DNA of 63,475 bases, filler included, from Hausera hauseri (taxonomy: Eukaryota): NCBI GenBank assembly GCA_046269625.1. It is 12 parts of 12 records of this genome, joined end to end, with 100 filler letters (N's around TTAATTAATTAA, not from the genome) between each part and the next. Parts side by side here need not be neighbours in the genome. Positions count along the whole stretch, not along the records: positions 58,924 to 63,475 come from JBJURY010530787.1; 11 more parts are not named here. One strand, written 5' to 3'. The translations under genes were made by a program, and so were the position numbers. Numbering within the stretch: position 1 is the first letter of the stretch; each line of letters starts with the position of its first letter. The notes under the pieces are model-generated. The model did not search any database, was not told the DNA's origin, and saw nothing but the letters and a program-made list of their open reading frames with translations. Shown here piece by piece: positions 31,258 to 63,475 of the stretch.

Positions 31258-31259
31258 CA

Positions 31260-36359: not shown

Positions 36360-36790
36360 TCTTTCTGTGTTGGTTGTGCTGAGCGCTCCAATAGGTTAGG
36401 GTATTGCGCTTGCAGCAATGGTGCGATGTCACTGGGTTTGTAATTTTGATATCCGTGACAGCGTTTATGGTTAGAGTGAATGCTGGTGGAGGTAGTGGAT
36501 TGCTCCCGCTGGTGAGTTGTTGATTTTGGCAATCAACTGTGAGATCGTAGTGATCTAGGAAGTCAGAACCAAGGATCGGTTGCATGATATCGGCCAATAT
36601 AAATGACCAAGCGTATGGTCGGCCTTGTATGTGAAATTGTAGGTACAGTGTACATGTGGTTGCTATGCTCGTGCCATTGGCAGCTTCGAGCGATGCATGC
36701 GAGACCAGCGTAGGTCTAGCGTATGCGCTAGGTATCAACGATAAAGCTGCACCAGTGTCCATTAGAAAATCTAGTTGTTTCGAGATGTCG
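36360..36790 (-). pseudogene. pol: Gypsy aspartic protease (start of pol), cut by the contig end
   Basis: DTGAALSLIP...AANG...ILGSDFL. Confidence 0.9.
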
Positions 36791-36908
36791 GAGTGTAGTG
36801 GCTCATCCTCGAGAGTGAAAATTGCATCGACAATGCGTTCGCTATTTGTATACGGCAGTAGTGGTGATTTGGTTTCCAGTCGACGTGCCGTTGGTCATCT
36901 GGGCCCAT

Positions 36909-39274: not shown

Positions 39275-39405
39275 CTCTTTTTGAAGTTTTCTTTTCGAAA
39301 ATCTTTCTTTTTGAGTAGTTTTCTTTTTTTGAATAGTTTTCTTTTTGAAGTTTTCGTTTTGAATAGTTTTCTTTTTTGAAGAGTTTTCTTTTTTAAATAA
39401 TTTCT
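39275..39405. repeat. Degenerate 16-18-bp tandem repeat (TTTTTGAA.AGTTTTC)
   Basis: About 7 consecutive units. Confidence 0.8.
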
Positions 39406-41600
39406 CCATACTTTAAACTGTGGATTTAAGCAAATGAGTTTAAATCCATAGATTTTGTTTTGTGACTTTGTTGGCTACAAGTGCTGATTGCCCAGACACT
39501 TACAATTCCCTATTTGTTTTTTAATTTATATTTTTTAGTTTGATGTTGGGCGAACTCGTGATTCTATATTGTGATTTTCAGGTTACCCGATTTTCGTTAT
39601 TCATTTGAAATGTTATTTGCTTGCTTAATTAAAGGTTTAATTTTTCGTCAGCATTTTTTGTGATATTTATGATAAGCATGGAAACAGTGAAAATAAAGTG
39701 ATATTATTGTTTTGTAAATTTTATTGGGTGTGTGGATTTTAAATTTTATTTTAAATTTTGTTGTTAGTGTCGAAATTTATTTAACATGTTTGGTATAATT
39801 TATTTTTATTTCCTTTTTTCCCTTTTTTGTAAAATGGAACCTTACAATAATGTTTGCATAATTACTATTATTTGATTACTTTACCGCTTTGATTAACAAT
39901 TGTTTTACAAATAATATTGGGGATACGCATCATGGGGTTTAACAGTAACACAGGACATTTAATGTTTATTATTTATGATATCCACAATGAACAATGTTTG
40001 TGTCAGTTTCTATTACAATCAAATGTTAGTTCTTGCAATAGATTTGAAACAATAATTGTGATTTGGTTTTCGATCTTCTGAGTTGGTTACTGGGGTATTT
40101 TGGGTTATTTAATTTTATTAACGAACCCTAACAGTATACGCTCAAAAACTTTAGACTTAAGAATGAAGACTGCTTAAATATTTGAAGCCAAGGAGATGCA
40201 AAAACGTTTTGTTATTTCTAAACAGAACGTAATAAATTTAGCAAAAATATGGGATTATTGAGTTGCACTACTGTAATAGGATAAATCTTCATTCAGGAAA
40301 TGTGGTAAATGGTTGCAATTTAGATCGAGCAATATAAGAATTAAAGAAAAAAGCTAATAATTGGTTGAGTCAATTACGATACTAGAGCGAAATAAAAATA
40401 ACTAGGTGGTTACGAATGAAAGGCAAAAGAAGTTTTTTTCGCTGATGATNNNNNNNNNNNNNNNNNNNNNNNNNNNNNNNNNNNNNNNNNNNNTTAATTA
40501 ATTAANNNNNNNNNNNNNNNNNNNNNNNNNNNNNNNNNNNNNNNNNNNNCATTAAGAGCGTACATTTTCGGACTAAACCCAAGATAAGCAGTAATAATTT
40601 TGCTGTTTAACTCGTCCTAAATGAGATTTTTGGTCGATTCTAAATTCATTTTCTTAATTACGCAAACGGAAGAAATATGATTAAAAACCTCGGACATTTT
40701 GGAGTTCTGTTATTTACCCCTGTAAAATAAAATTGCAGAACCCCAGTTTAAGTCTAAAAGCAAGGCATTTTACATTTTCGATTGTTACATAATTATAAAA
40801 ACAGCTGAATGTGTTTAACTAAATATTTGCAAACTATCAAAAAGTCAATGGATACAGTGTTAGCAATAGTAAACAAGAATTTATTTGCGTTCCGATTTTT
40901 GAATATTTAAACAAGAACAATTGATAAAACTGCATATTAGCAAGGTCGGGTAAAACCGAGTCATCCCAAATAAATCGTAATTTTCGCTCATAGTTATTTT
41001 ATAGCCATCCGTCATTTCGAATAGTCATGAACTAATAAATTTTTGATATTTCGAAATATTTAAAAATTCATGTTCCAAATTTAATTCTGCTGTCTGGAGG
41101 TAAATTGCGATTTTTCATAGCCTGTACTCTCATAGCATTCATCATCTCATGTAAATAGTTCATTTGATTGATCTAATTTCAAGCGTTTAGAAGGGCTTTT
41201 CTTGATGTGACTTCTGCTCTTACATCCTCCGTAATTACAATCGAATTGTTATTTGTCATAGCATCATAGGCCTGAACAGCAATTCCTGCATATTTCAGTT
41301 ATTTTCTAAGTACCAATATCAGTGCTGGATCATTTTTTCACTTCTCTTTCTTAATAACAATCCTTCGATTGTATTGAAAAAATTTTGAAAATATTATAAG
41401 AGAGACTCTGTTTACACATCTGCTTCTTTAATTAACATGTTTATTGTTCATTTTTCCGAATGTTCCTCAATTTTCCGGGTCAAAATTATGGATATATATT
41501 TTCGAAAATAGTACCAGGGTTTTTGGGAGTTTTAACCGACTCCCGTCAACGGATTTTAAATTCTCGAATTCATGGTAAGATACAGCATAGGGGAATTTAA

Positions 41601-44235
41601 CCATTTCTTTACCAACAGTACATGCACTTTTAATATTTCAACTCCACACACATTTTCTATGTAAATACTATTAGTATAACATACAGTTGAAAATTTTTAG
41701 CAAAAATTATATAACTAATAAAGTTATATAACCGGGACTCCAAAGTCCCGACGGTAAAGTACAACATCCGAATCTACACAGGTCACACTCATGCCAAGAG
41801 CCAGTCACAGTTCAATAAGCAAGCTGCTAACACCACTATCAGTCTCTAACTGTCGTCAACTTTATATCGGCAACAGTTCATCTTGCTGTTGCAACACCGG
41901 TGAACTTTACAAAAGCTGCATGTGGAGTATGGCCTCGACTCGCGTTCAGTTTGGAACACTGAGCACAGCGACCCCTGTCCTCACCAAACACTGGCCAGTG
42001 ACTGCCTCTGTTTGATGTAGCAGCTTCCGGCAATGACCGCTTTCGATTCTTTCCCTGAACAGTTTCTGACGATCGAAACGCAATCAGGCAATGGAATTCG
42101 TTCCACCAGATCACAGTAAACAGTGTATGAATTTATCAGGATGATATCAGTCATGCCAAAACAGTCTATACCATCATTTGTTTGACTTTCTGTTGAAGCC
42201 ATACAGAGAGCGCAGCATGTCGGCATGATCTACGCCACACATGTTCCTGTTCTATGCTGCAATGGACTCTGGCTGGCTCACTTCAGTGGTGCTGCCATCT
42301 TTTAGCCGCCGTGTTGTCTTGCCACATGCAGTACCATGTGCACTTGACAGCATATGCACAACTCGGTTGTCTTTCCACTTCAGGAACACCACTCCTTTAT
42401 CTGACACGCCAGTCAGAGTCCCCACGTTTGAGCTGTTTGTCTTCAACCAGCTTTGGTAGGTGTCTCCTTCCTGCTCGTACCGTGCAGCATTCATAGATTC
42501 CATATTCTTCTAGGTAGTTCAACAAAGGGACCGAGGAGAAATAATTATCAAAATACAGCATGTGGCCCTTATCCTGGATTGATGCCGACATATTCACGAT
42601 GACTTGCCCACCAAGTCCAATGTCGGCAGGAGCATCAGTAACCAGAGACTTGCCCTGGTACACATCAAATTGATGAATGTAGCCATTGGTCTCAGCTCTG
42701 CACCAAATTTTGTAGCCTCTCTTTATCGGCTTCATTGGATTGTACTGTTTGATTGAGCTGCGACCTTTGAAAAGTATCATCGCCTCGTCAATGGACTGCA
42801 CTTGAGTTGCAGCAAAAAGTCGCTGAAACTGAGCATTCAACTCAGTTATAAGTGGTCGTAGCTTGTAGAGACGATCAGGGTTTTCTTTACTCCAGCTGCT
42901 GTTATCGGCGACATGCAAGGTGTGGATGATCTCCGAAAATCTATTTCTTGACATGGCCTTTTTCACGCAATTGACACCAAGATCAGTCTGAGTACTCCAA
43001 TAGAGAGTATAGGATGGGAGGCAGTGGTATCCCATCAGTAAATTGATTCCGAAAAAAACAGCTCCTCTTTCTGCAAAGATTGCAGTGGCTTTTATCCAAA
43101 TTTCAGTTGTCTCCAAACTGAATACAAATAGGACTGTTCAACAATATTATTTACAATGTTATCAGACAGAAACATCGTAAAATAGTCGATCTGTGTGCTA
43201 CAGGCAGCGAATTCCTCCTTAGCAGGCCCAGATGGTTCATCCAGAAACACAATCTTCTTGGTTTGCAGCTCTTTCTTACACCACTTTGTCGAACCTAAAT
43301 CCACGTGCCGAGATGTGCTTGATGTACTGATCTCATCGTCAACATCTTCCGGTTCAGAATCAGGCTGGACTTCTGTATCGGTGGATGCAGAAGAATCACT
43401 CTCATCATCAACAGGAGTATCATCTGCAGGATCTGGTATTTTAACTGGTATTGCCTGATGCTTGCGACTATAAAATTACGATGTAGAAAAGGCCTTTTTA
43501 CCTGCATGAAAAAAACTGCAAAATTGATAAACGTCGAGATTCAACTTGTTCATATGTTGGTTACTGATACACATCATTTTGTCTCTCATTCAGCCTACTG
43601 GGTGGGGTACTACCATAGGATTATGATTAGAGTGGGGTTCAATGAGTAGGTTTTATGAGCTGGCAAGACGAATGGTCGTCATATTTATCAGGCAATTATC
43701 GGTATCAGTACCTCAAATGACTGTATTTTGGATTTTTAACAAAGACTGATTCAAATTAAATCTAAATTCAATAATTTACTACTGACAGGGAACGGTATTT
43801 CATATCAAATACACAATGCTAGGTTGATAAGGAACTCTTACGATGAAACGACGTACTTTGCCAACGGGACGTCCTAGTCCCATGCACTTAAAAGCATTTT
43901 TCAACACTAACTCAACATCTAGTCATGTAATCTCATCAATCGTATCAATATCAATAAATAATCAACAAATTCGAATACGAATCTTAGTGCAAAATGAAGC
44001 TTTATCACTATAAATAACAATTTACAAACCATTCGTGATTCAGGAAGTAAACACCGTGGTTGACAGGAAAATCAGTCGTAAATACGAAATCAAAACAGGG
44101 TGCGTTCAATAAATCACATTCCTCCAATTGGGGCCACGAAGTCCCGCTGGTAAAGTGACCGTACAGAAATTCAGATCGATTTTTTTAATCGCAATTTACC
44201 ACTGGGACTTTGAAGTCCCGCAGGTAAAGAAATGG
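41601..44235 (-). mobile_element. Full-length piggyBac transposon with an inactivated transposase
   Basis: TTAA TSD at 41597-41600 and 44236-44239; perfect 13-bp TIR CCATTTCTTTACC. Confidence 0.95.
41830..43507 (-). pseudogene. piggyBac transposase (DDD), frameshifted
   Basis: MSRNRF, SIDEAM, KPIKRGYKIW, YFDNYFSS, WKDNRVV, GVDHAD and a Cys-rich C-terminus. Confidence 0.93.
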
Positions 44236-46263
44236 TTAATAGAATTCTGATAGAACAACCTCTTCACCAATAACAAGTAATTTTGTTTCATAAAATTGTT
44301 CGAAGTGTCCAAAACGAAAAGAAATATATGAACATGTATTTTCGAAACTCACCAAAGGCCAAATAATGAAAATGTAAATCAAAATGGCTAAAATATTTTG
44401 AAAATGTTGCCATTCTATAATTCTTGACCCATATCCACCAAGAGATAAATTTTTAAACATGTTACTCACAATTTGTTTAGTACGAATATTGAAACAAAAA
44501 GTCTATATACAAATTACCAAAGCAAGCCAAGGTGATTAAGTGATCAAGTTTGCACTTAATTATTATTTACATACTTATACGACTTTCACAATCGTTATTA
44601 TAATCAAAATTGCCATATTGCCTAATTCGAACTTCAATTGCCTTTTTTGGAATTATTTGGTCAAAGGACATTCTTTGATTTTAAAGAGATATTCAAAATA
44701 GTCTAAGAGACATGTAATAAGTTATTAAAATAATTACGTTTATTTCGTTACGTCATAAGATCGTAACTGGGTCATCGATAATTCTCTGAATAATCTTTCG
44801 ATGTATTTGGTTCCTCTAGGAATTAATTGTTTAATTTTATCTGATACTGTCGATATAGTTTTTTCGTAAGATTCAAGTTTCATATTCTGCCGTTGCAATT
44901 CATTATCATTTGCTATATTAAATCGTATTGCGATTTCCAATTCTTCTTCATGTTTCTTTTTCAGTGCAACTATTTCAGACCGCAGTTGTTTGGCTTCTTC
45001 TTTTTGCTGTTCTAATTCACTTCCTAAACCTTCAACCTAAAACGAAAGTTTTCAAATAAACATAATATAGTCAATAGGATTAACTTTATCCTTCAATGTA
45101 TTTGATTCTGAAGTTTTCATTTTTAATTCTCTACGGAATTTCCACATCTGTTCTGCTTGATTTACCCTTGCCACAGAAACCTTTCGTTGACGATCACGTT
45201 TTTGTGATATCAAAATAACATTTCTATTTTTGCCATATCATCTGCCCCTAAATTCCCAATTGAGATCTTGTTAAGAGCTTTTTGAATAAAAGGGCAAACC
45301 AGAGCCTCCACTTCCCTCCATGTATATTTCATCATGTCTGATTCTTGTACTGTATTTCTACGTCTGTATATGTCTATATTTTACAAAGCAAAAGCGGGCT
45401 TTCACATTTTAGCTATTGGCTCTTAGGAAGCATTAAAGTCTGTCAGATGAATTGGAAAAATCATTTTAAGAGAGCATGAAAAGACATCAAATCTTAAATA
45501 CTTTTCAGACAGACTTTGTTTTTGTTATTCATTTAGTAAATGGTGCAAACACTAAATTTAAGTTCCAGGAATAACTATGCAAGTACTTTTATTCTGTTTG
45601 ACTCTTTTTAGTCTTTCTGATTAGTTTGATTCTGTGCACGTGTGCAAGATATTAGTGTTTCTAATGCAAACTGAAAGACAATGTTGATATTTTGTTTTGT
45701 GTATGTATGTGTGCGTAGCATCCTGTTATGTTCTGCAGAAGAAATAATTACCATGCATTGATGATGACTATAACTGTAACTATTATTGGAAACCTTCAGA
45801 AGGTGTGACAAGATTTATGAACTTTTTATTGTGTGATCATAAAACAGGGTGTGCGACAGGGTTGTGTTCTNNNNNNNNNNNNNNNNNNNNNNNNNNNNNN
45901 NNNNNNNNNNNNNNTTAATTAATTAANNNNNNNNNNNNNNNNNNNNNNNNNNNNNNNNNNNNNNNNNNNNTTACATATATTTCTCGTGAACATGGTTCAC
46001 AATGCGCTTATAAAAACTGTTTAGCGTTATGTCAAAGTTATATTGTTACGAAATAAATGTGTTATGAAAAGTATTTGGTTTTTATAAGACACAAGCATAA
46101 AATGAAAAAACATGTATTGAAAAACAATCACATAATAGTATCATCGCAGTTACTGTCACTGTAAGGTTCTGTGTCTGGTAAGAATTCATTCATGGGTTTT
46201 ATCAGGAGTCCTACCCATCTTATATACAGGCACTGGTGTTCAGCATCCTGTACTATCACAAAC

Positions 46264-46410
46264 TCACTTTTTTCTGCATAGTGAACAAGACAATTTACTT
46301 CTTAGCCATTTCTGCAGACAGCCTATATAGAACATATGTGCATCGCATGTCGCCATTCGCATTATCTTATCGGGCATCTGCTCCCAACAAATCGGACAAG
46401 TTTTTGACAT
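46264..46410 (-). CDS. Small RING-finger (E3 ligase-like) ORF, probably frameshifted at its 3' end
   Basis: MSKTCPICWE...TCDAHMFYIGCLQKWLRSKLSCSLCR; CAAAATG start context. Confidence 0.75.
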   Translation of the reverse strand: MSKTCPICWEQMPDKIMRMATCDAHMFYIGCLQKWLRSKLSCSLCRKK

Positions 46411-46659
46411 TTTGAAATAATGATAGATTAATGCAAGTAATTGTCGCACTGTATTAATTTGTTAATCAAATTTCAAATTTATTGATTATATTGATCTTAC
46501 TTGGTCTTAACCTATATAGTAATTACTTAGTTTTACTTGGCCTTATCCTATATCCCACATTACTTGTTCAATAAGACAACAACACGATATTTCTATACAA
46601 GATTTATTACAAACAAAAATAACAACGACTAACAAAATGTACATATTTACAGTGCCACA

Positions 46660-49600
46660 TATCAATGATGTAGTGTGTGGATTCCATCGCTTAGGATCTG
46701 CCGCTTATCGTCCATCCAATCTAGGCTTTTCTTCTATAAGGTTACAGTTTATATGTTATAAGCCCTAGATTGTATCCGTCTCATCTCTGATATGATGTGA
46801 GTCTGCTCCTGCAGAACTCTCACATAGTCACTGAAGCCAACCTACTTGGTCAATGTAGCCCTTTGAACCCATTTTGCCCGCTTCTTTACTTGGCCACATA
46901 CGTCTAGAGCATACATTTTAGATCTGAGAGCCACAAATCTCGAGACGACTGCCCCATTCACCTCATCTTTGAATTTCCCTAGGACCTTTTTGTTGGCAAT
47001 TGAATAGTTGGGATGATTCTTCGTATAGTCCGAGTTATCCATATGCTTTGCTAACTGGGCAAAGTTTTCATAAATATTATCTGTATGGATCTGATAGATG
47101 AAACTATCAGTATCAATACACATCAGCTGCTTGGACTTGAACTTGGGGATCATGATGTCGTAGTGGAAATGATACATCAGGGTCTTTGACAGGTCGAGGA
47201 TTGCCATACCCACATATATAGGCTTGCTGAATACCAAGGATATTTTCAGCATAAGAATGCTGACGAAGTTCTCTATATCATGCTACTATGGGAGTTAGGC
47301 TTGGCAATAAGCTTCTTTGCGCGCTTCCAGTCAGAGTCCAGTTCGATGTTGATCCTGTTGCAAATATTCTCAATGGTCTTACCAAAGACCGAGTTGTTGT
47401 AAAGCTTGAACTGGTCCTTCTCAAAATCGTTCTTGGCATTTGTCCTAAGCTTGGTATTGAGATCTATGTAGGGCTGCAGCCACATGGACTGGCTGAAATG
47501 CAGGGTTCTACGGATCTTAGTAATACGAAGTCCATGTCTAACTGCTTGCTGGAGATTAATGTAGTGAACTACATACCTCTCCCTATTACCCAGATGGCAG
47601 AGCAGATTCTTATGCTTTCCATGAGGAGGAGGCCTGCTCTCAGAGAGGAAAGGCAGCTGTTGATGCCTTGCTTGGATGAAAGCCGGATATTCCATATCCA
47701 CCTCCATTATATAGCCCGTATCTTCAGTGGGATCCAGGTCCAATATAGGGATGTTTTCAGGATTCTCGACCCATTTAAAGTTATCATATGGCAATGGGGT
47801 ACTCATTGCGTATCCATACAAGTTGTTGACATCGAGGTATAATATATATGAGGATTCCTTGGATGGATCACACTGGGCCATATACCTGTTGTTGGCCTCA
47901 CTATACCGGTGAATGATCTGGCATATTCCGCATGTAATACCTCTCTCGATCATAAGGAGCATATCATAATCCTTAATGAACTGCTGCCTAATACCTGTAT
48001 ATCTCAGCATTGCTGCCCTACTCATCCCTGGCGTCCTAAAGAAATGAACCGGATCCAAAGCATGACTCTTTATTGTAACATCCCTGAAGCTCTCAAAGAC
48101 ATTTGTCAGCAGCATCCCGTCCATCTTGAGGTATATGTCGCTGTATTCCCCTAATATTTGGCATTGGAATGCATGCCAGACGTTCTGGGCATGCTGATAG
48201 TCAGCATCACTGATATCGCAATCAGAGAGGATACTGTAAAATTCCTTTTTGTACGGCAATGAGGTCTCATCCAGTGTTTCCCATGAGGTTATGTAGTTAT
48301 AAGGAAACACACCTTTCCTCTTGACGAGGTGATATGCTATAGGGAAGAACCGCTTCGTCCCCTTGAGTTCTTCTGCAGGGAGGTTCTTCACTAAACTATC
48401 CAGTGACGAACTCAAAAAGCGGAAGCTGTCTATGAATCGAAGTCTAATGCGGCCCACATGCTTCGTGAAGGTGATATATTTTTCCTCACTATTGGGAATG
48501 ACATCAATGTTCCCATCAATGTTGCCCAGTTCCCGAACAATGAAGTGGGAATCATAGCCACTGAAATTGTGGAACACTACAAGCACATATGTGCATGTTT
48601 TTCAACGCAGATTGCAGTTGCTGCATGCTGCATCTCGATATTTGCCTGTAAAATGACAATTCTGCCTGACTTTATGATTATCCTTGTTGAAGGACTTGTC
48701 GCACAAGTAACATGTTGTTGTCTTGCGTCATTCTTCTTTTTGTTGCTTCAACATTCTCATATTATCTTTATGCTGCTGAAGCAGCTTTTCAAGCCTATGA
48801 GCCATGTCTTCAAGTCGTTTCATGAAATGTACTGCTGCACCTGAACCCCTGAATAGAAACGGTTCACTTTCCAGTCCTTTGGCATACATGCAATACAATG
48901 AGAGTTCATGATATTAATATGCCGTTGTGTTGCTATGTTGAGGACTGGGAGTGCAGCTGTGAATTGGCCGGAGAATAGATAACTATTGGGACCTTGATCT
49001 TCTTCTCGAACTCTTTGAATTAAATATAGTCCCCCTTGGGAAAATCTGGCCTTATACAGTAATTGTTGCTGCAGTACATTTTGTGCTCTGCAAGCTTGTC
49101 CACGGCCTCATCGCCGCTAAAATGGGAAAAGCATCGTTTACATATTTCAATTTTTCCTTATGTTTCGTAATTTGTGATCCCACTAGACGCTCAAAGTTCT
49201 TGATCCAAACATAATGTTTCTTTTCTCAATCGTTTAGTAGGAGCAGATCCCTATGATCTTCCAATTCAGTATCATATATATGCAGGCGATAAAGTTTGTC
49301 CTCCTCATCCAATCCAATGATTTTGATGGATATGTTGTTGATTCGGCTAAACTTCTTAATTTCATCTAAGGATGGAGCGAATGTGATTCATTGGAAGTAA
49401 TAGTTGTGCTTCAGATCATTATATAGCCAAACTCGATCTGCTGTATGTTTTTGATCCGGTAAAAGTTTACATAAAATGGCATACATGAAACACATGCTGT
49501 CATTATTATTGACATTGACACATGCTTTTTAGCGATCCAATCCGCAAGCTGAATATAAGAACTGCCCGGCATTGGAGAATACTTGTGAACATACACAAGC

Positions 49601-49941
49601 AATCTCTTGGTGGTTGCCAGAGTCCATCCGCTCTTTTTATCCTGACTCTCATCGGCTTCACGAATCAGCCTTGCATGCTCTTCATGCAGCCATTCTACTA
49701 TAATGGTGGCTTCAAAAATGGATCTATTTGTGGTCTTGAAGTCCCTTTTGGACTCTTCGGCATCAACATTGACGTATGTGGCTTCAAATTTACTATTAGC
49801 CTTAATGGCCTTGAGCTCAGCTATGTTGTCCTGGAGAATTCCTTTTGTTTCTTTTTCTGTGTATTCCAGGAACTCCTTGATGGTTGTTTGACCAGTTGCA
49901 TCAATGACATATTTGCGGCATTTCCTCTTTAATGCTGCAGC
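46660..49941 (-). pseudogene. polB: Polinton/Maverick-type protein-primed family B DNA polymerase, copy 1
   Basis: FHNFSGYDSHFI, RKGVFPY, YLDVNNLYGYAM, KLYNNSVFGK, IDTDS, LGKFKDE, LRSKMY. Confidence 0.93.
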
Positions 49942-50949
49942 NNNNNNNNNNNNNNNNNNNNNNNNNNNNNNNNNNNNNNNNNNNNTTAATTAATTAANNN
50001 NNNNNNNNNNNNNNNNNNNNNNNNNNNNNNNNNNNNNNNNNAGCAATACATGTTTTACCAGATAATATTAAAGTTTTTGATCCACTATGGATGCATTATC
50101 CATCATCATTGGTGGCGAAATTGGTACGTATGCGGCAACCTGCCACATGCAATGATGTTATGTATCATGATCCATTAACATTTCTATGTGGGAATTATTG
50201 TGTGGACTGGCTTAAACGACAACGGATATAAAATGTTATAAACGTTGTCATTATTGTGTTAAGAAATGTTGTTGAAATAACGTCTGTCTTCTTTATTAAC
50301 TTGGAGTGATTTGTGGATAATAATAATGAATACACAAAAGGAGCTGTGTATAATGTCAGTGGATAATATGTTTCATCTACTACATTATGTATTTGCGTAA
50401 GTGAATTTTGAATATTGTAAAAGTAACATATGCTATTCTAGACCTACAGTACATTGTTACACAAACAGTGCACAAGCAACAAGTGCCTATTTGACGGAAC
50501 ATCATTACAAACTGATGTGGGAAGAATATAATACCCATTTTTGCAGAGATAGTCTCATGCTAGACGTTGAGACATGATGCCACGTTCTACGTCAAGGGTC
50601 ATGCTGATGGGCGGAAGAAGATATTTACCAGTATATTTTTAGATTTATAAAGATGTACATATGAATACGGCAAATTGGTAACTATACCAAAGAACATTAC
50701 ATGTATTTATTGTAAACATGGTTTACGTTGTGCTTATAAGAAGTGTTTAGCTTTATGCCAAAATTATGTAATGAAATAAATGCTTTATGAAAATACTTGT
50801 ACAGTTTTACTTGACCTATATAATATTTAGTTACTTGGCCTTATTCAATATCTCTCATTACTTAATCAAAAACACGATCTTTTATACGATTTACTGATAC
50901 AACACTACAATACGTCGTAAAAAATACACAACGACAATGATATTTACAT

Positions 50950-53135
50950 ATTCACATTAATGCAGCATGCCCGTGAGGTATTGTGTTGATTCCGTTATCC
51001 AGGATGCGTTTCTTGTTATTGTACCATTCCAGGCTCTTATTCTGCAGTGTTACTGTTTAGATCTCATGAGCCCTAGACGGGATCCTTCGCATTTCGGACA
51101 TTACGTGAGTCTGCTCCTGCAGAACTTTCACATAATCCGCAAAAGTGATTTTCTTGGCTAAAGTCGCCCTTAACCTCTTTAGCTCGCTTCTTTACTTGAC
51201 CACATACATCGATGGCATACATTTTACTCCGCAGCTTTAAAAATCGCGCGATGACTGCCCCATTCACCTTGTCTTTAAATTTCCCAAGGACTTTTTTGTT
51301 GGTTATTGAATAGTTGGGATTCTCCTTCGGGTAATCAGACGTATCCATATGCTGAGATAATTGAGCGAAGTCTGCAAAGATGTCCTCTGTATGGATAGAA
51401 TAGATAAAGTGTCCATGTATATTAGCTGTATAGACTGGAATATTGGGACCATGATGTCGTAATTAAAGTCGTACATCAAGGTCTTTTACTGAACTTGAGC
51501 GATGTTTTCAGCATATGGATGCTGACCAGGTTCGCTACATATATAGTGCTGCTGTGGAAGTTCGGCTTGGCTATCAGCTACTTTGCCCGCTTCCACTGGC
51601 ACACCAACTCTATGTTGATCCTGTTCCGGATGTTCTCCATCGTTTTGTCAGAAACGCTGTTGTTATACAGCTTTTTGAAGTCGTTTTGGCATTACCCCGC
51701 AGCTTCGAATTGAGGTCTATGTACGGCTGCAGTCACTTGGACTGGCTGAACCGCATGGCCCGATGAATCTTCGTAATGCGGAGTCCATTTCTGACCGCTT
51801 GCTGGAGATTTACGTAGTGGACTACATACCTCTTCCTCCTGTCCAGATAGCAGAGCAGCTTTTGATGTTTCCCATGAGGCGGAGGCTTGCTCTTAGGAAG
51901 GAAAGTCGGTTGTTCGTGCCTTTTGTGGGTGAAAGCTGGATATTCAACATCTACCTCCAATATGTAGCCCGCATCTCCAATGGGATCCAGATCCAGTAAA
52001 GGGATGTCTTCGGGATGTTCGACCCACTTGAATTCATCATATGGCAATGGGATGCTCATTGCCCATTCATATAAGTTGTTGGCATCTAGGTAGGCAATAT
52101 ATGAAGATGCCTTTGCTGAGTAATATTCAACCATATACTTGTTGTTGGCCTCACTATACCGGTAAATGGTCTCATTCGATCACGAGGATCATGTCGTAAT
52201 CCTTTAAGATCTGTAGCTTAATACCACTATATCGCAGCATTGCTGCCCAGCTCATCCCTGCAGCTGTAAAGAAATGAACCGGATCCAATACGTGGCTCTT
52301 TATGGTAACATCCCTGAAGCCCTCAGAAACATTCGTCAGCAGCAGCAGCAGCAGCAGCAGCCGCAGCACATCCGTGAGTAGATATATGACACTGTATTTC
52401 CCAATTTTCCTGCAATGGAATGCATGCCAGATTTTCTGCGCGTGCTGACAGTCCGCATCGCTATATGGCTGTCCGACAGCTTGTTATAAAACCCTGCTTG
52501 TCCGGCAATGAGGTCTCATCCAGTGATCCCCATGAGGTTATATAGTCATAGGGAAACACTTCTTTCCTCTTGACAATGTCAAATATAGTGGCGAAGAACC
52601 GCTTTGACTCCTTGAGTTCTTCTGCAGAGAGGTTCTTCATTAAGCTGCCAATTGAAGACGACATGAAAGGGGAACTGTCTACGAAGCGGAGCCTGATTTT
52701 CCCGACATGCTTTGTAAATGTGACGTACTTCTTCTCATTGTTGGGAATCACATCAATGTTACCCTCATTCTTGCGTAGTTCCCGAACAATGAAGTGGGAA
52801 TCATAGCCACTGAGATTATGGAACATCACAGGCACATATGTACATGTTTTACAACAAAGATTGCAGTTGTTGCATGCCGCACCTTGATATATGCCTGTAA
52901 AATGGCAGTGATCCCTGACTTTCAAATTCTCCTTAGTGAATGATTTGAAGGACAAGTATAATGCTGTTGCCTTGCGCCATTCTTCTTCCTACTTCGTCAT
53001 GCTCATGTTATACTTATGCTGTTGCAACATATCTTCAATTGTATGAGCCATGTCTTCAAGTCGCTTTATAAAATGCGCTGCTGAGCCTGGATCCATGAAT
53101 AAATATGGCACACTGTCCAGTCCTTTGGCATACAG
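50950..53135 (-). pseudogene. polB: Polinton/Maverick-type protein-primed DNA polymerase, copy 2
   Basis: VRDHCHFTG..GAACNNCNL (endonuclease-VII-like insert), FHNLSGYD, YLDANNLY, LGKFKD, LRSKMY; many frameshifts. Confidence 0.93.
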
Positions 53136-54251
53136 TCCTCTGTACATGTAATATGATGACAGTTTATGACATCATAGGAACCACACATGTGAATTTCTTT
53201 GGGACACTTGTTGCTATTGGCATATTACTGTTGAATATTTCTTCGACTTTCTGAAAGAATCCAGATATTGTTTATGCTGGTTATAAAATTTCTCGTAACC
53301 ACTCCAACACACTACCTCACATGCACGACACACATAGTATTGAGTCCTGTTATATTGGTATCCAAAATAATGCTGCATCAGAATGTGGAAAATCTGTGCC
53401 TCGTGATTCTGCGCATACAGTATTTTTAGAATTTTCAAGTCAAAATTTAGCATAAACAATTGCGGTATAAATAATTGGAAGTGATTCCTGAAATAATGAA
53501 AGATATGATAGTTTCAAAACACTGTCTAGTTTTGATAAATGATGCAGTAAAACAAGACAAAATATACTGCAAAATATACTGCCATGCACCAATTTTGATT
53601 TGATTATAGGTTTTCGCATATAGGGAATCCAATGGATGCATCAGATTATTCGCTCGACCGAGTTTTCGAGTTTGAATAGCTAAATATTCGACTTTTAAGC
53701 TCAATTTCGAAAATATGATGTCATATTCCGATTCGCCACATACAGGTTCCTATCTGTATATGCTATTAGATTTATCGACTTATGCCTCACTGAGCTTAAA
53801 ATGCACATTTTGCTTAATTCGATTTATTGATTTTATATCTATATAACATATTTTCATGGAATAATTTTAATGATTTAGGGGTTTTGGCAAACAGGAAATC
53901 GAATGACTACTTCAGATTTTTCAAAAATTGGAAGTTCGATATTCAGCAAAAAAAACTTTCGAATTTCGAATATTTGACTCGATATTTGAGATCTCCATAC
54001 TCGNNNNNNNNNNNNNNNNNNNNNNNNNNNNNNNNNNNNNNNNNNNNTTAATTAATTAANNNNNNNNNNNNNNNNNNNNNNNNNNNNNNNNNNNNNNNNN
54101 NNNAACTTCTTGTACTATTTTTTTTTTATTTAATAAATCTCGAGCGCATGATCTGAAGTGTCTGTTTTTAAAATTTTATCCCATTATGACCCATACAACA
54201 TGCTGCACAGGCCTCTGATTTGGGGAAGTTTAATTTCGATAACCCTGTATA

Positions 54252-55898
54252 TCATTTGTACATTATGTTTGCATAATTCAGTGCTTCTTTCGCCGAACAA
54301 AGAATGTTTAAGGTAATCGTTTTCAAAGTTTTGAATATCTCTTTGGCTGTATTTTTTAGTATGTAAGATCTCTGAGATGCGGAATCTATGATTGCTCGAG
54401 CCTCACGTTTTTTACCGTTACCTCTTAGAATAACTGTCAAGGTTTGCAATATAACATTAGGTGTTTTAACGACATTTGCGAGAGCCTGATCTCCCTCTGG
54501 ATTATTTTCAACTAACTCTGTATTTTTCTTATTGTGGTGACATGTGTTTATTTGAGATATGCTTCTGCATAAAAGTATATGATGTTTTTTCCCACAGGCT
54601 AAACATCCTGCTTTCAGATTACACTTCTTTATTTGATGACCAAATTTCAAACAAAGGAAACAGCAGCCTGATTTCTTGATGATAGTTTCTCGTTCACTCA
54701 GTGGCATATTTCTCGCGTTCCCACAGTCCCAAGAATTATGAAAACCGGAACAAAATATACATTGTTTTTGACTATGAGTAGATGTAAACAATTCAGCTGC
54801 ACTGTATACTGGAACATGTTTGCCAGACTTCCATTTGCTATTATTAATTTTGTTTTCTACATGTACATTAGCGTTTTGTCTGTTAGCCAGATTTCCCGAC
54901 TTGTTTCGATCAAAAGTCTGTGAAGCAAGGGATATTCGCTCTTCCCCTTCCACCTCATCTTGAAGAAATTCGAGTAAAGAGTCTAAATCAGTCTTCTCAT
55001 TTGTTTTTGCAATTTCTGAATCGTCAAAAGATTCTGAGTTTATATCTCTCGATCGGCGATTTACACTCCGATAACGTTCCCACGCTCTAAGCGTGTCGTC
55101 GGGTAACGAAGATTCTACAAGGGGGAATAACATAGCGGCATATTTTTCTCTAGTAACCCCCAGTACTTCCAGAGCACGTAGTTTCGATTCTAATTCATCA
55201 TATAATTTTCTTAACGATCTCCCAAGTGTACCTTGTTTTTGAAGTACCAACACTAATAAATCTCTTACATAAACTTGAATCAACAGTTCATCTTTCCCAA
55301 ACCGAGCTTGGAGTTGTTTTACGGCTTTCTCATAACTTTCGCCACTTGGCGGAAAACTTTTAATTAATTCTTCAGCAGAGGAACCCTTCTCCATTGCTTG
55401 GGAGAGATACGCAAATTTATCATGTTTGTCAATACTAACATCTTTATCTATCTTTTTAAACTGTCCCCAAAAACCGAGCCAGTTCTTTAAATTACCATCA
55501 AATGTGGGTAACTTTATTTTGGGATAACGCAACAATGTATTTGAAATCGATGGAACGTTTGCGTTTTCACTATGCTGAGTAAAACTATTTTTATCGGAAA
55601 GTAATTTTCTTAACTTGTGTTCTAATACTCTCCACCTGTCTATATATTTTTCTGACTCATCAATTTCTTCCTCTAAAATTTTCTCATCCTCAACTGTCTC
55701 GTAAAGTTTTTGTTTAACATTATCTTCGGCGGCAATCATTAGTTTCGATTTACCCTCTATAATGCTCAACTCTCGAATTTTGTCTTCATCGGTTAATTCA
55801 CTTTCTTTATTATCGAACTGATTACAAGCTCGAGTAAAAACTCGGCGATGTTGTGTGCGAATTGATTTTAAAGTTTCCATCATAAAAATAATATTCAA
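54252..55898 (-). CDS. gag: BEL/Pao gag plus start of the protease
   Basis: PKIKLPTFDG...FWGQF, three zinc knuckles (CIFC..H...C, CFLC...H....C, CLAC...HH..LC), RAIIDSASQRSYI. Confidence 0.92.
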   Translation of the reverse strand: MNIIFMMETLKSIRTQHRRVFTRACNQFDNKESELTDEDKIRELSIIEGKSKLMIAAEDNVKQKLYETVEDEKILEEEIDESEKYIDRWRVLEHKLRKLLSDKNSFTQHSENANVPSISNTLLRYPKIKLPTFDGNLKNWLGFWGQFKKIDKDVSIDKHDKFAYLSQAMEKGSSAEELIKSFPPSGESYEKAVKQLQARFGKDELLIQVYVRDLLVLVLQKQGTLGRSLRKLYDELESKLRALEVLGVTREKYAAMLFPLVESSLPDDTLRAWERYRSVNRRSRDINSESFDDSEIAKTNEKTDLDSLLEFLQDEVEGEERISLASQTFDRNKSGNLANRQNANVHVENKINNSKWKSGKHVPVYSAAELFTSTHSQKQCIFCSGFHNSWDCGNARNMPLSERETIIKKSGCCFLCLKFGHQIKKCNLKAGCLACGKKHHILLCRSISQINTCHHNKKNTELVENNPEGDQALANVVKTPNVILQTLTVILRGNGKKREARAIIDSASQRSYILKNTAKEIFKTLKTITLNILCSAKEALNYANIMYK

Positions 55899-55919
55899 AT
55901 AGTTGCTTACCTAAGCTAC

Positions 55920-55943
55920 TTCAATCCTGTTATGCGGACGCCA
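55920..55943 (-). promoter_or_regulatory. BEL/Pao primer binding site
   Basis: TGGCGTCCGCATAACAGGA 2 nt after the LTR end and just upstream of gag. Confidence 0.6.
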
Positions 55944-55945
55944 GT

Positions 55946-56290
55946 TGACACGAATTCTACGAAAACGAAAATCCCGTAGTTGAAGGTTCGATTGAAATTA
56001 TGATGGACGAAGTTACGCAATTTAGAAATAAACATTCATTTATTACGCACACATAGACTCACACATAGAATACATCTAATCTCAAAATTTATCTCTTAGC
56101 ACACACAACTTTGTGCTATACACTCATAGTATTATTAAAACTCAAAATATCGAAAAAAAAGGAATACAAACAAAACAAAAAACTCTTCTGTTGCCAAACG
56201 CAACGCCAAAACTTACCTCTTTTTTAAAGGAAAAAAAAGAGAACATAGATAATATCAATGTAGAGGCAACACAGCACTCATTTTGTGACA
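55946..56290 (-). mobile_element. BEL/Pao LTR (345 bp)
   Basis: TGTCAC...GTGTCA ends, preceded by PPT AGGTGGGAGTA and followed by the PBS; contains AATAAA. Confidence 0.85.
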
Positions 56291-56412
56291 TACTCCCACC
56301 TAAGTTAACGAAAAGAATAACATGATAAAAGTTAACTTATGAACACAAACAACAGGTCTCAAAAAAGGAGTCACTACATTGTACAATAATTGTCTAAAAA
56401 ATTAGAATGTTC

Positions 56413-57435
56413 TTATAGTGATAGTTTCTCAGGTGCTTTAACAACATGACCATGTCGCGTAATCATAGGCTTCTCAATGATTTTCTCTGCATTGGGTTTT
56501 CTCTCTTTTATTTCAGCATGATCGTGAAAGTCTCTCTTCTTTCTCACAGTATCTTTTACCTCGTTGAGCACTGCCTCTGGAAGGGTTTCAATAGTCGAGA
56601 GTTCTAAAGGATATAATCTTTGTACGGCTCTGAGCACCTCTCCTCCTTGAGTCTTCACTCTGGCACGTCGTACGATACCATCAGCTCCAGGTAGCACCTC
56701 AATTATTCTGCCAAGAGGCCAAGACAATCTCTTTTTATCTTCATCTCCGATGAGTACTATATCTCCTTGTTTCAAGGGAGTAAATGTTTCATTTCTTCGT
56801 CTCGAGCACAATGATCCCAAATATTCTCGTCGAAATCTCACTCGAAATGCATCTCTGACCGTTTGGATGTAGCGTAATCTACGTCGTAAATAGTTTGGAT
56901 TTTGTGTCATTCTCAGGTTGGGTACAGTGTTACTTTTGATATCTTTGAGAAAATCAGCTGGAGTAAGAGCAGTAAGGCTTGAATCGGAAGACACTGTCGT
57001 TAACGGTCTGTCATTCATAATAGCTTCACAGTTACATAGAGACGTGAGCATTTCCTCATAATTCATACAAGCTCTTCTTAATGTTCTTTTCAAGACGCCT
57101 TTCATCAAGCCTACTAAGCGCTCCCACCATCCACCCCACCATGGTGCACTGGGCGGTATAAATTTCCAAATTACGTATTCTTTTCTCATCTTTCTTGTTA
57201 CTTCATCTTCACAAGTAACGTCTTCAGCAGCAGGCCACGATTCAGCGGGTTGACAGAGCCACTCTGGGCCCTCCCACCATTTCATGTTACCAGGAACAAA
57301 TCGCCACGCTTCTTTATCTGTTAAGTTCAAAATTTCTTGTACTCGGTTATGTACAAATGTTCCCCAAGTATCTTCTCTTCTTATCCAAGCTAGGACCGTG
57401 GTCGAATCAGTCCAAAAATACACATGTTTAACCTT
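56413..57435 (-). pseudogene. pol: BEL/Pao RNase H end and integrase with internal deletions
   Basis: FWTDSTTVLAWI, WWEGPEWL, WKFIPPSAPWWGGWWERLV, NDRPLT, WPLGRI...GADG..R, LYPLEL. Confidence 0.92.
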
Positions 57436-58624
57436 TTGCTTACGGCTGGGATGAATCTGTCCCAGAAATATACTTCCGAAAAATGCGGCGTTGGGATGGA
57501 TACGTCCCAGACATTTCCTTCCCCCCTCTCTGTGGGTGTGCATTTCATCCGGTCAATCGCCCGCAGGTGCATTGTATCAGAGCATTGTATTGCAGCTGCG
57601 GATTATCTGCTGAGTTTGAGGGAGAATATGAAAAGGGGAAAAAAGGAGGGAAAAGGTCAAAGCGCCAAATGAAAGGGGAAATGCGGTGGACGTTTGTACA
57701 TAAGTAGAAAATTAGCTACTGTGATTCTGTTACACTCTATTCGTTATTGGTGCAGATATTTTTTTTTCGGTTTGGAATTTATAACCTGTATTTCTAAATA
57801 CATTTTTAGAAAAAAATAAATGAAGAAGGTGTGTTTTTTGTCAGGTTTGGGGACAAGAAAAGAGAACATCTTTCTTGTGCAAAAAGTGCAATGTCGGACT
57901 TTGTGTAAAAGACTGTTTTAGGGACTTTCACTGTCAAAACAGTTTAAATTGAAGAACTTTAGTGGTATATTGAAGTCGATTTCATTTAATACAATTTTTC
58001 ATTTCAAATTTAAACAAATTTCAATTTTTAGATATTTTGTTTTTGTCTTTGTTGTAAGAAATTTGTATTACAATATTTTATGTCTGTATAAAATGCTTTA
58101 AATTAAAAAAAAATTGCGCAAAATCTGTGTTGCGTAATTAGCACCATAAAACCACTTCTTTGCTCAAATTCAGAAACCATTTCATAGAAAAAAAAATCTC
58201 TTTTTGTGGAACACCAGAAACCTCTTCAGGGAAAAGTACACCCAATGATGAAGAAGCATGTTTCCTCATAGTAAGCATATTAATCTGAGGGTGTTACTAA
58301 AGAAAAAAAAAATCTTCATGCACTTAAAAACCCATATATTTTGCCAAATAACTTACAAATGAAACTTTCCATTTATATATAATATAATCTAGACCATGCA
58401 CGTAACCGGAAAGGGGATAAGGTTATAATTCCTCCCCCATATACTTTGGATATGCGCTGGTAAATATAGAAAAACCTTTATTTTAAAATTCGAGCGCAAT
58501 TTCCCAGTGAAAGCCCATCATTTACACCCCCCCCCATTCAGGACCACGCCAACCTAGCGGTGCAATTTACGCACCGCACCCGGGCGGCAGCGGGTGTGAA
58601 GGGTGGTGGGAGGAAAATGATTTG

Positions 58625-58812: not shown

Positions 58813-58980
58813 AGGAAAGGAGGNNNNNNNNNNNNNNNNNNNNNNNNNNNNNNNNNNNNNNNNNNNNTTAATTAATTAANNNNNNNNNNNNNNNNNNNNN
58901 NNNNNNNNNNNNNNNNNNNNNNNTGCCTTTGGTGCTGTTCTCACCGTATCGGAGTCCGAACTTTGAATGATATACTCATC

Positions 58981-59763
58981 TCACCACTTTAATTGTTTGT
59001 AGATAGATTGGTAACACTGCGCTAAGGCAGTGCTTCGGAGTGAGAAGCCCTTCGTGTCATAGAACTTCCGGGCTAATTCTTTGTAGGTATTGGTCGATAA
59101 CTAATACCGGCGGACAACATCCTTGTGATATAAGATATCACGTACTCCAGCTATCCGTCGGATTGGACACTTGAAGTGGTTTATAACCATTTCAACCACG
59201 TCGGCTCCAATAACAATCTTGTCAGTTATTACTTCAGTCACTTTTCGGTAGAGGTCAACTTGATCAATTTGGTTATTAATGTTAAACTCGGTGAGGCCTG
59301 TTATGTGCATATCGAAATTGTTAATACGCTGCCTCGGGGTGATGATTTCATAGAGTAAAGTGTCTCCATTCAAGGTTAGAACCGAAGCTTCAGTGGGTTG
59401 AAGCTGATTCCACTGGTCATAGGCCAAGTTGACGGCTGCTATGACCATGTCTTTATCCGTAAATCTGTCCAACCTTCTAAAAGGGATGCCTTTATACTTG
59501 ACGTAATCGGGTTCTGGGAGATTGAAACACCTTCCTTCTGGAAAGCTTGGGTAGAATTTCTCATGTTTAATTATTTCCAATGCTAATATTACACGATTTG
59601 TACACGAACGGATTTTGAATGTACTGTCTTTTAAGAAGGTATGATCAAAAGCTATACCATGTTCGGGGTCGACATTGATTAAATCTCCTTTAATGGATGT
59701 CTTTCTATCTGTAGTTGTATTTGAATTTGGCCCACAACTCCATATAAATTCATTGAATGAAAT
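58981..59763 (-). pseudogene. Accessory ORF with a DEDDh (ISG20/REX4-like) exonuclease fold; one internal stop at 59101
   Basis: EASVLTLNGDTLLYEIITPRQRINNFDMHITGLT...DLYRKVTEVITDKIVIG...YKELARKFY follows the REX/ISG20 pattern; the frame is open from ~59763. Confidence 0.65.
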
Positions 59764-60290
59764 CTATCAGGTAGAATAATAATATCTGTCAAAAGAAAGG
59801 AAGTGGCTTTGGTTATTTGCGTTATGGCCAGAGATCGATTGGCCATGCTATACCCTTTTACATCATTAGGGATTTGCTGAGTCTGAGCATAGTTCAAACT
59901 AATCATGTGGTCATTGTGAGACACAGTATTGGTTGGACGGGTTGGCATTGATTATGTGATTCTTTACATCGCTATACCAGTGTTTGGAACGGTTGATAGA
60001 TTGTATCTGATGAATCTTTGCAGCTGAGACTGTAAAAATAAGAGTCAATACGTCATTTATTACTATACTTAGACACAACACAACGGTTACCAAACAACTC
60101 ATGGAGGTAATCGTTGTGGATTTACTACAATTATTTCTAAAGTGCAAGATAACTCGATGTTGTTTGGTTATCCTTTACTTAGGGTTGCGTATATTGCAAT
60201 CCCTGACATTAATCGTCATCTGGGGTTGTCCGTATCTAACGGGTTCGTTAGATAACGCATATCAATTCTGACCCAGCTTCTTTGTTTGAA

Positions 60291-61595
60291 TCACCAGTAT
60301 AAGATTCTACTCACTTTTATCAATATTACTATTAAGATTACAGGGGTTAGTGATCCTATGCACATTATTTCTAATCGTGAATATTTATACACAGCTCGTG
60401 CTAGTTTTGTAGTCATCTTATTGCTAATTATGTTGGTTTTATGAGATACATTTATCTCATAACTTACTCTGGTGATTGCTGTCACTACCTTTGTAGAAGT
60501 TACCTTATCTTTATCATTCCGTAATTGTAAAATTATCGTATATCGAGTATTAGGTTCTAGATCTGCACATGATACCACTAAATACATCCGGAGTTATGAC
60601 TCCCTTGGCTACCACTATCTCTTGTTTCTTGCAGCTGAATCTAATTTTTACAAAATCTAAATCTGGTCTGACAGAAATAATAAATGCGGTTGGGGCTGCT
60701 ACTATAGTGACATTATCCCATATGGATCGCTTTGTACGATAATATGAAGCGTAGGGCTTAATTAAGATAGTCATCTCCGTTTTATTAGTCGAGGACTGGA
60801 CAGATGACGCCATAATCCTTTTTGGTATATCATCGTACTCTTTCTGGTTTTTATATCGTATGAACATCGTCGGCCCTTTTCTCTGCATTCTATTCGTGAC
60901 AAAGTGTATTTTATATTGTATATTTTGCCTCTTGTTACATTACAGCAAACTTGTTGTTGTTCATTTGTTATTTCAAATTTTGGTAATCTTTGTTTGCCTC
61001 CTGTTTCTTTTATGGATATTGTTATCCATCGGATATATTCCAATTCTATCATATTCCTAATTTCGAGACAACTTCCACTTTTAAATCCCATTGGTCTTAT
61101 TATTAGCTGGGCGAGTATTATTTCATCTAGTAATGTTTCATTCATTTCATGTTTATTGGGAACTCGTATATACTTGTGAAATTTGGTATATAGATTGTAA
61201 TAATAGTTTTCTTTTTTCTTTATGAGTGTAAGGTACACTCCATGTGTTCCTAAAGTATCTATCAGACATCGCGTTTCATTTGTAGATGAATGGAGCATAC
61301 AGTCACTATATGGCTCATGAGTATTCCTCTTATAACCGTAGACTGGGGTTGTTTGGATCCTTATAAAATAGTCACCAGGCATTCGTCTTGTAGTATATCA
61401 GGTAATGCATTTTCGGCCTTTCATGGAGTACGTTATTTGGTATTTTAAGCTTTTTAACCATAGGTCCTCGTTTATGGCCGTGGCATGTCGTATCTTTGCT
61501 CGTTCGACTTCTTGTTCCGTCATCTGTCCGGCTACTTGGGGAAGCAAAAAGATAATCGTTAATAATATGCTCTTTATTAGCCAATACCTTCTATA
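60291..61595 (-). pseudogene. Env-like type-I membrane glycoprotein downstream of Gypsy pol
   Basis: Signal-like WLIKSILLTIIFLLPQVAG, N-glycosylation sequons, RTKR furin site (60727-60738), DLEPNTRYTI FN3-like motif, TM IMCIGSLTPVILIVILI; one stop and two frameshifts. Confidence 0.6.
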
Positions 61596-63475
61596 GATTG
61601 AGTTTCTTTCTCTACCTTTTCAGTAATACTTAGTACGATTTCCTTTTCGCCTTTCCTTAGCTCACTTTTTCGGGCCGCTGGTTTACATCTGTTAACGTAG
61701 ACCTTCACAGACGTATTATTTTTCTTCAAACAGATGTTTTGTAGATCTACTTTCTCCACTTTATACGACCCTTTATATGGTCTATCCAACTTACACGTTT
61801 TACCCTTTTTAATTGCCGGAGAATATAACATAACTTGGTCGCCTATCTTAATTTTTGGTTGCTTGGTCTTCTTGTCGCAATATCTTTTATATTTTGATTT
61901 ATAGTCCTCTTGATTTTTGCAAGTCGTTTTGTAGGCTAATTAAAGGCGTTCCTGCATTAATTGTTTATAATCTTCCACTTCCATTAAGTGAGACAGGTCT
62001 CACATTAAAGTCTAGGCCAATTGGTAATCTTGCATCCCCTAAATACATTAGATAAAAGGGTATCTCTTTAGTGGCTTCGTGAACTGACGTTCGATTTACG
62101 AACACACATGCATTAACATATTTGTCCCAATAGTCTTGTCTAGTATTAACTACTGTTTGTAATTTTCCTTTCAAATCTGCAATATGCCTCTCAACCAACC
62201 CGTTATTTTCTGGGTGTCCTGGCGTAGATCGTAACTTCAATATCTTCAAAATATCGTATATAGACTGCATTACAGTTCCAATTAAATTTGATGCTTGGTC
62301 GGTCAGAATAATTCTTGGGGATCCGTAATTAAACAATAGTAATTCGCCAAACCTAAAAATCGGCGTAATTCTTTAACTGTAGTTGGTTTTGGGAAGTCTC
62401 TTATTTTTCCCAATAATTTGTCTTGAGGTTTTACGCCGTGTTTTTCTACTCTATGTCCAAGAAAATCTACTTCCGCTTGAGCAAATGAACATTTTTTCGG
62501 GTTTATCTTCAGACCCATGATTTCACACCTATTGAAGAGGTCTTGCAAATCTTTTAGATGTTGTTGGAAATTTGGTGATGCTATTATTACATCATCAATA
62601 TATACCATGGCGTGTGGACCGTCCAACAGCAGAAGTTCCGTTCCTCTCTGGAATGTTGGTGGTCCATTTTTTAGTCCGAATGGCATCCTATTAAACTCCC
62701 ATAATCCTTCACCGATTGAAAAGGTTGTTTTTGGTTTATCCTCTTCTTTCACCTCCACTTGCCAATAGCCTTTCTGTAAATCTATCGTTGAGAATATGGT
62801 CGATCCGTAAAGCCTGTCTAGTATTTCGTCAATTCTTGGCAATGGGTATGTATCCGTTTCAGTTATTTCATTTAACGCTCAACAATCTATGCAAAATCTC
62901 ATGGTTCCATCCTTCTTTTTAACCATTACTACAAGAGCCGTCCAGGGGGAACAGCTTGGTCGGATGATATTGTTTTCCCTCATTTCCTTTATTATCTTTC
63001 ATGCTTCTTGTTTTGTGTAATACGCTAATCGATACGGTCTCTTCTTGATTGGGTTATCCTGTCTTTCTTTTAATTTAATAGTGTGTTGTATTACATTCAT
63101 TGTACCCAAATCGTATTCATTCTGTGCGAATCGGTCGTTATTCTTTTGTAATAATTCGATTAGCATTCTCTTCTCTTCCTCAGTTAAAATTTCACAATTC
63201 TGTAACTTGTCATGCCAGTTAATATTGTTTATTCTATTTTTCCCTCTATCCTTGCCTGGTTCCTTTTTTAACTTTTCCATCATTAACTTTTCTATCTTGT
63301 CTATGTCTGGCGTTGTCGAGCATGTTTCTTGTTTTATTATCCCTTCACTGGTGGTTACTTCTCCCAGTCTGGTATTCTTTCGTAATCGTCTTTCCTTACC
63401 TGCCGTATTACAAATTCGCAGGTGGATCTTTCCTTCTCTCACTTTATCTACATGAGGGGCGATTAAAACTTCATA
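61577..63475 (-). pseudogene. pol: Gypsy pol (RT and integrase; RNase H deleted)
   Basis: IDLQKGYWQV, RMPFGLKN, YIDDVII, RFLGLANYY, then directly YGSPRIILTDQ, HPENNGLVER and a GPY-like module. Confidence 0.95.

Follow-up and report, generated by a model that had tools for sequence, protein, structure and literature searches.

An FN3-like membrane protein predicted at the end of pol in a decayed Ty3/gypsy element of Hausera hauseri and in its relatives

The locus and its pol remnants

The window, that is, the whole 63,475-nucleotide stretch of Hausera hauseri DNA analysed here, is made of 12 short unrelated contigs joined by N44-TTAATTAATTAA-N44 spacers (at 5491, 12767, 17890, 24033, 30375, 36260, 40450, 45871, 49942, 54004 and 58824), and contains many decayed animal-type transposons. 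Since the contigs are unrelated, adjacency across the spacers is meaningless. The element under study lies in the last piece (58924-63475), on the minus strand, with the window end cutting inside pol and the contig end at 58924.

The pol region upstream of the RT core, between protease and RT (62879..63475, minus strand), aligns with the pol proteins P0004 and P0006 and with other gypsy pol; it is cut by the window end and interrupted by stops at 63001 and 62881. The Ty3/gypsy RT core itself (62339..62878, minus strand; PF00078, E=2.6e-28, and alignment) has the clade signature H-x-MVYIDD, which is common to the window, P0004 and P0006. Alignment to P0004 places the junction of an internal deletion at 62336..62351 (minus strand), where RT is fused to the middle of the integrase core; about 370 residues (P0004 846-1219), comprising RNase H and the integrase N-terminus, have been removed. 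The second half of the integrase core and the C-terminal domain (61580..62351, minus strand) contain one frame change and one stop, and the C-terminal domain is 33-42% identical to those of P0004 and of four metagenomic loci, L001-L004, described below. The order of RT and integrase, both alignable to gypsy pol proteins, is that of Ty3/gypsy, with RNase H deleted in this copy. The window copy is a decayed, dead Ty3/gypsy element.

A membrane protein gene directly after the integrase

A gene with a signal peptide, an ectodomain and a TM helix begins right after the integrase on the minus strand, and all of the features that the initial annotation had listed for it were recovered in place. The predicted signal peptide (61527..61598, minus strand; hydrophobic run 61583-61527, hydropathy 1.79 over 19 residues) has no start codon of its own, and its frame contains no Met from the upstream stop up to the signal. 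An equivalent hydrophobic run is found in all five relatives, where it is internal and in frame with pol, whereas the window gene sits in another frame than pol and lacks a Met. This arrangement fits either decay or splicing in the window copy.

The open frames of the gene (61397-60774, 60939-60553 and 60593-60294, minus strand) imply two frame changes. Since the resemblance of the first frame to L001 and L002 (judged by eye) extends to about 60820, the first change probably lies at around 60820-60790, after the 60939 ORF has begun. Codon-usage scoring gave no placement of the frame changes, and the codon-usage signal is weak in the window ectodomain.

The N-terminal part of the ectodomain (61074..61526, minus strand) has one in-frame TGA (61400-61398), two NET sequons and no homologue found. 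The first 275 residues of the membrane protein, the stop being read as X, find no match among 1.84 billion representatives or in a 5.8-billion set, in which 314 candidates were returned with none at E 0.001. The 208-residue open part of the ectodomain has no match in the Atlas or in viral contigs, and PHROGs and NCBIfam gave nothing useful for the window ectodomain. The C-terminal pieces were also scanned against family libraries. Because the ectodomain searches were empty, relatives were sought through pol.

A profile built from nine modules of the relatives only identifies two predicted two-cysteine beta modules in the window. The weaker one (60822..61073, minus strand) scores 11.0 bits in a scan of 61520-60774, which none of 1000 shuffles reaches (best shuffle 9.5). 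The membrane-proximal one (60474..60714, minus strand) is split by the frame change near 60600-60570 and scores 24.9 bits with X at the break (0/1000 shuffles, best 13.0). FN3 domains are seven-strand beta-sandwiches with a tyrosine corner of consensus L-x-P-x-T-x-Y, and the tyrosine-corner-like motif C-x-x-L-x-P-x-T-x-Y described earlier is present at 60572-60528 (minus strand). The module is all-beta in structure prediction, and the Foldseek matches listed for the predicted L004 module are almost all FN3 or FN3-type domains. Pfam fn3 matches the membrane-proximal module of the window at E=0.069, sub-threshold fn3 or Fn3_Dep-1 matches are present in the window, L001 and L002, and the best Pfam hints are the FN3 domains of the receptor phosphatase Dep-1 (E 0.001-0.002). 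The two-cysteine module therefore appears weakly FN3-like, by predicted fold and by Pfam.

An RTKR motif that fits the furin consensus R-X-K/R-R lies in the linker before the last module (60727..60738, minus strand); such motifs are found in two of the six ectodomains of the clade and are not conserved in it. The predicted TM helix (60294..60374, minus strand; run 60374-60318, hydropathy 2.53) is directly followed by a TGA at 60293, and the cytoplasmic tail of the relatives is not recognisable in the window. The reported sequons are also present: NET at 61280 and 61142, NVT at 60941 and 60714, NKT at 60786 and NVS at 60452. In 5000 shuffles of a 436-residue path with X at the breaks, which drops one of the six sequons, at least five sequons arise with P=0.13 and at least one furin motif with P=0.28, so that taken alone both are within chance. 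It is conservation in the relatives that places the window gene above chance.

Between the TM helix and the next gene is an 87-residue open frame (59914-60174, minus strand) with a strong hydrophobic run at 60093. This run was rejected as a true TM helix, and it has no match to anything.

Relatives and lineage

The RT search returned 620 proteins at E 1e-20 or better, 120 of which were listed. P0004 is the best match among those listed for RT, for the integrase core and for the integrase tail. It is also the only one of 87 integrase-bearing pol proteins among the 120 listed RT matches to have post-integrase hydrophobic runs of TM strength, which are arranged in frame with pol as signal, RTRR, one module with the cysteines and the tyrosine corner, stalk and TM helix. 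The loci L001-L004 are on metagenome contigs and were picked by RT motif alone, in a scan that returned four; the motif has no match in prokaryote genomes or viral contigs. All four have a signal and a TM helix in frame with pol, and pol thus runs in frame into the membrane protein in each of the five closest pol relatives found (P0004 and L001-L004).

In a RT+integrase tree of 41 sequences (the window and the 40 best of 83 with both regions; 390 columns), the window, L001-L004 and P0004 group as one clade with support 97.3/100, in which the window is sister to the other five (86.8/96). The five relatives are not fully independent: L001 is closely related to L002, and a common sample prefix marks three of the loci. 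By sequence comparison, the post-integrase membrane protein is a trait of this lineage.

L001 and L002 are 93% identical in RT-RNase H and 36% in the ectodomain, where identity by codon position is 53/66/45, suggesting that the ectodomain is kept as a protein and yet diverges fast. The number of modules per ectodomain varies from one to three. The tail ends in [ST]-x-[VLI], the PDZ-type C-terminal consensus, in four of the five relatives vs 3/119 control pol proteins, some of which are partial. L001 (residues ~1250-1810) and L002 (~1110-1670) also have a second aspartic-protease-like domain and ankyrin repeats in the interval between integrase and membrane protein; no ankyrin repeats follow the integrase in the window, L003, L004 or P0004.

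An exonuclease-like gene downstream

The next gene downstream (58942..59951, minus strand; pieces 59951-59682 and 59763-58942) follows the membrane protein gene closely and was absent from the initial annotation. It is a broken accessory gene with a predicted ISG20/REX-like DEDDh exonuclease fold. The Atlas features of the window ORF (59951-58942) give RNase_T at 0.90, and in blastp against a small local database the ORF matches accessory ORFs of L001-L004 (E 5e-10 to 9e-7). Direct searches with it found no relatives, and its single-sequence model has a pLDDT of 30. Exonuclease-like accessory ORFs follow the polyprotein in all four loci. RNase_T matches three of the six related ORFs, two above cut-off, and those three keep the DEDDh residues. 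DEDDh exonucleases use a catalytic motif of D-E-D-D and H residues, and these are missing in 4/7 copies, namely the window and three related ORFs. The family profile is closest to ISG20L2 (E=8.5e-22), SDN1 and ISG20, driven mainly by the intact paralogues.

L001 and L002 each have a dead and an intact exonuclease paralogue in tandem, with related short tandem repeats between the two genes (L001:2570-2747, L002:1615-1735) that are possibly regulatory. In L004, a 222-residue charged, probably helical ORF without a Pfam match (11375-12040, plus strand) lies between the polyprotein and the exonuclease gene.

A second surface protein or an envelope

The gene had been proposed to be an independently acquired envelope or receptor-like gene, free of F-type env features and perhaps marking an undescribed enveloped lineage. 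The absence of F-type features is borne out: no Pfam env family matches the window pieces, and with an E limit of 10 none matches the four post-integrase regions that are intact. The protein is also element-borne and common to the whole clade; it is predicted to be a type I membrane protein that is glycosylated and has FN3-like modules. No LTR lies between pol and the gene, and the homologues are not merely intron-containing host genes unlinked to pol, being joined in frame to pol in 5/5 relatives. An 11-base purine run at 61613-61603 was rejected as a PPT, as there are three such runs in 2.8 kb, it is in the integrase tail and no LTR comes after it. No LTR pair was found in L001-L004, and in the window no 3' LTR is seen up to the contig end at 58924.

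The envelope part of the proposal fares less well, and the receptor-like part fits better. RTKR and the hydrophobic stretch after it had been taken as an env maturation site and fusion peptide, but the motif is absent from the ectodomains of L001-L004, and in alignment the stretch corresponds to strands one and two of a beta module. What had looked like a stand-alone env gene is, in the relatives, the in-frame end of the pol polyprotein. Nor does the protein appear to be the envelope of an undescribed enveloped lineage, since both of the relatives that include gag (L003 and L004) have a fusion glycoprotein upstream, in a layout that is already described. These two loci encode one polyprotein of gag with zinc knuckles, a ubiquitin-like hint, an in-frame mononegavirus-like fusion glycoprotein, protease and pol. 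PF24664, a viral fusion glycoprotein family, matches between gag and protease (L003, E 1e-92 to 4e-92; L004, E 1e-86 to 2e-86), in these loci only and never in the post-integrase protein. By analogy with these sister lineages, the window's own element would have had a fusion glycoprotein upstream as well, in the part of the element beyond 63475. The furin motif in 2/6 ectodomains, the module strands in place of a fusion peptide and PF24664 upstream in relatives suggest that the window protein is likely a second, fast-evolving accessory surface protein, a predicted attachment aid and not the membrane-fusing envelope.

The anatomy is observed in the window and its five relatives. All five relatives join the protein in frame to pol, two have the fusion glycoprotein and four the exonuclease-like genes. 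The reading that we favour, with moderate confidence, is that the window holds a decayed copy from a Ty3/gypsy clade that ends its pol polyprotein with an accessory membrane protein for attachment or targeting, while a separate upstream glycoprotein fuses. The membrane protein would consist of a signal peptide, one to three predicted FN3-like modules, a stalk, a TM helix and a short tail. The hydrophobic runs of L003 and L004 predict that gag is in the cytosol, followed by a signal, the fusion ectodomain in the lumen, a TM helix, pol in the cytosol, a second signal, the FN3-like ectodomain in the lumen, a TM helix and the tail. The internal signal would direct the ectodomain to the ER lumen, and the membrane protein would be cut free of the integrase by signal peptidase. 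It may then accompany the fusion protein to the cell surface or the particle, where its fast-changing FN3-like modules would most likely bind a host surface molecule, and the PDZ-type tail of the relatives may position it at cell junctions or budding sites. Membrane fusion would be left to the separate upstream glycoprotein.

Herpesviruses and paramyxoviruses divide binding and fusion between proteins. A more specific version is a two-glycoprotein entry system, with an FN3 attachment protein and a class III fusogen, an ISG20-derived exonuclease or pseudo-exonuclease for counter-defence, and the window as a deeper-branching lineage; we hold it as tentative. Class III fusogens can work without a partner, as rhabdovirus G and baculovirus GP64 do, and this speaks for the main rival, which has the same anatomy. 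There the protein would be a receptor mimic, made of a captured receptor-like FN3 ectodomain and a tail with PDZ and tyrosine motifs, that acts on the expressing cell and is not an entry factor: it may alter junctions, signalling or immune recognition, or block re-infection. The Dep-1 FN3 domains as best Pfam hints and the PDZ-type ends in 4/5 relatives point the same way, as does other host-manipulating cargo in such elements (ankyrin repeats, ubiquitin-like domains and exonucleases; in part also PMC6431247). Translation in frame with pol and the fusion protein, however, ties the amount of the protein to particle production, and glycosylated, fast-diverging ectodomains suit an exposed attachment role equally well; we consider the mimic rather unlikely, if the most serious competitor to an attachment protein.

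That the protein is instead a new type of envelope fusogen, matured by furin and with the following hydrophobic stretch as its fusion peptide, is improbable. Its place 3' of pol, its signal peptide, sequons and TM helix would suit an envelope; RTKR in the window has RTRR at the matching place in P0004, whose reading frame starts at protease-like domains and includes no other glycoprotein, and the window lineage, as sister to the others, could differ from them. Against this, the L001-L004 ectodomains have no furin motif and one motif is readily expected by chance, the supposed fusion peptide aligns with strands of a module that is present in one to three copies, and no Pfam env matches while the true fusogen is upstream in 2/2 gag-bearing relatives. 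Part of a host FN3 gene, or AT-rich frames that are open by chance beside a dead retrotransposon, could account for 275 N-terminal residues without a homologue in either of the large protein sets, for sequons and a furin motif within chance and for the weak codon-usage signal of the ectodomain. The absence of introns, the start at the integrase end, an arrangement of parts shared with five pol relatives and the same exonuclease-like gene following in 4/4 loci make this very improbable; it is in the main refuted by the anatomy of the relatives and the module profile. An ultimate origin of the membrane protein by host-gene capture is possible.

Comparison with known elements

The nearest described layouts are those of the giant gypsy-like planarian elements Burro and GYPSM1, over 30 kb long, whose polyprotein places a fusion glycoprotein in frame after gag and before pol (PMC6431247, in part). 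By description only, L003 and L004 resemble them in the order gag, fusion glycoprotein, protease and pol in a polyprotein, and L001 and L002 in their ankyrins; the parts of that report covered here name no post-integrase membrane protein, FN3 modules or exonuclease ORF (PMC6431247). Unlike them, the window passes from integrase to signal peptide without ankyrin repeats. GAG-ENV-POL errantiviruses with an HSV/gB-type env are described in Platyhelminthes, Bryozoa and Nematoda, and the order in the relatives (gag, gB/chuvirus-like glycoprotein, pol) is similar; in the sections covered, the env types recognised are F-type and gB-type only and the post-integrase domains discussed are chromodomains (PMC13524379). 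The words 'fibronectin', 'exonuclease' and 'ankyrin' do not occur in its main text (PMC13524379). The lineage type is not new, because enveloped gypsy elements with a gag-env-pol order are known.

The F-type env of insect errantiviruses (gypsy, ZAM, Idefix) is likewise 3' of pol, with a signal peptide, sequons, a furin-type motif and a TM helix; it is a separate ORF3 whose expression goes through a spliced RNA. The window clade differs in lacking homology to baculovirus/paramyxovirus F, a conserved furin site and a fusion peptide, in having beta modules and not heptad repeats, and in that its relatives are in frame with pol. The bdelloid rotifer LTR elements Juno and Vesta have a DnaQ-like 3'-5' exonuclease ORF downstream of pol, which is the likeness to this clade, and the same paper, in the part covered, cautions against calling an env from TM, sequon and cleavage motifs alone (PMC5408684). 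Their exonucleases are RNase D-like DEDDy with intact sites, as far as that part describes them (PMC5408684), whereas those of the window clade are ISG20/REX-like DEDDh, with 4/7 lacking the motif, and follow a membrane protein. A literature search covering result listings and parts of texts found no description of an FN3-like post-integrase membrane protein or of ISG20-like accessory genes in such elements.

To our knowledge, enveloped retroelements have been described with a single env doing both binding and fusion. A second receptor-like surface protein beside the fusogen, if true, would extend how retroelements move between cells, and the clade membrane protein is a concrete candidate for what directs them to target cells. 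The ISG20-like exonucleases, which pair active with catalytically dead copies, are a candidate counter-defence against small RNAs. For annotation, the clade is a warning that an ORF in the classical env position may not be the fusogen.

Other contigs of the window

Several other decayed gypsy fragments are found at 24133-40449, and a BEL/Pao element at 54255-57552 (minus strand). A piggyBac-type transposase lies at 42400-43137 (minus strand). Two related contigs (45971-49941 and 50042-54003), with blocks that are 71-82% identical, are decayed and Polinton-like, with a protein-primed DNA polymerase B (PF03175). The contig at 17990-24032 has a PIF1-like helicase fragment (23204-23641, plus strand) and an uninterrupted protein-kinase fragment (19080-19703, minus strand), and may be a Helitron that has captured the kinase or carries it as a retrocopy.
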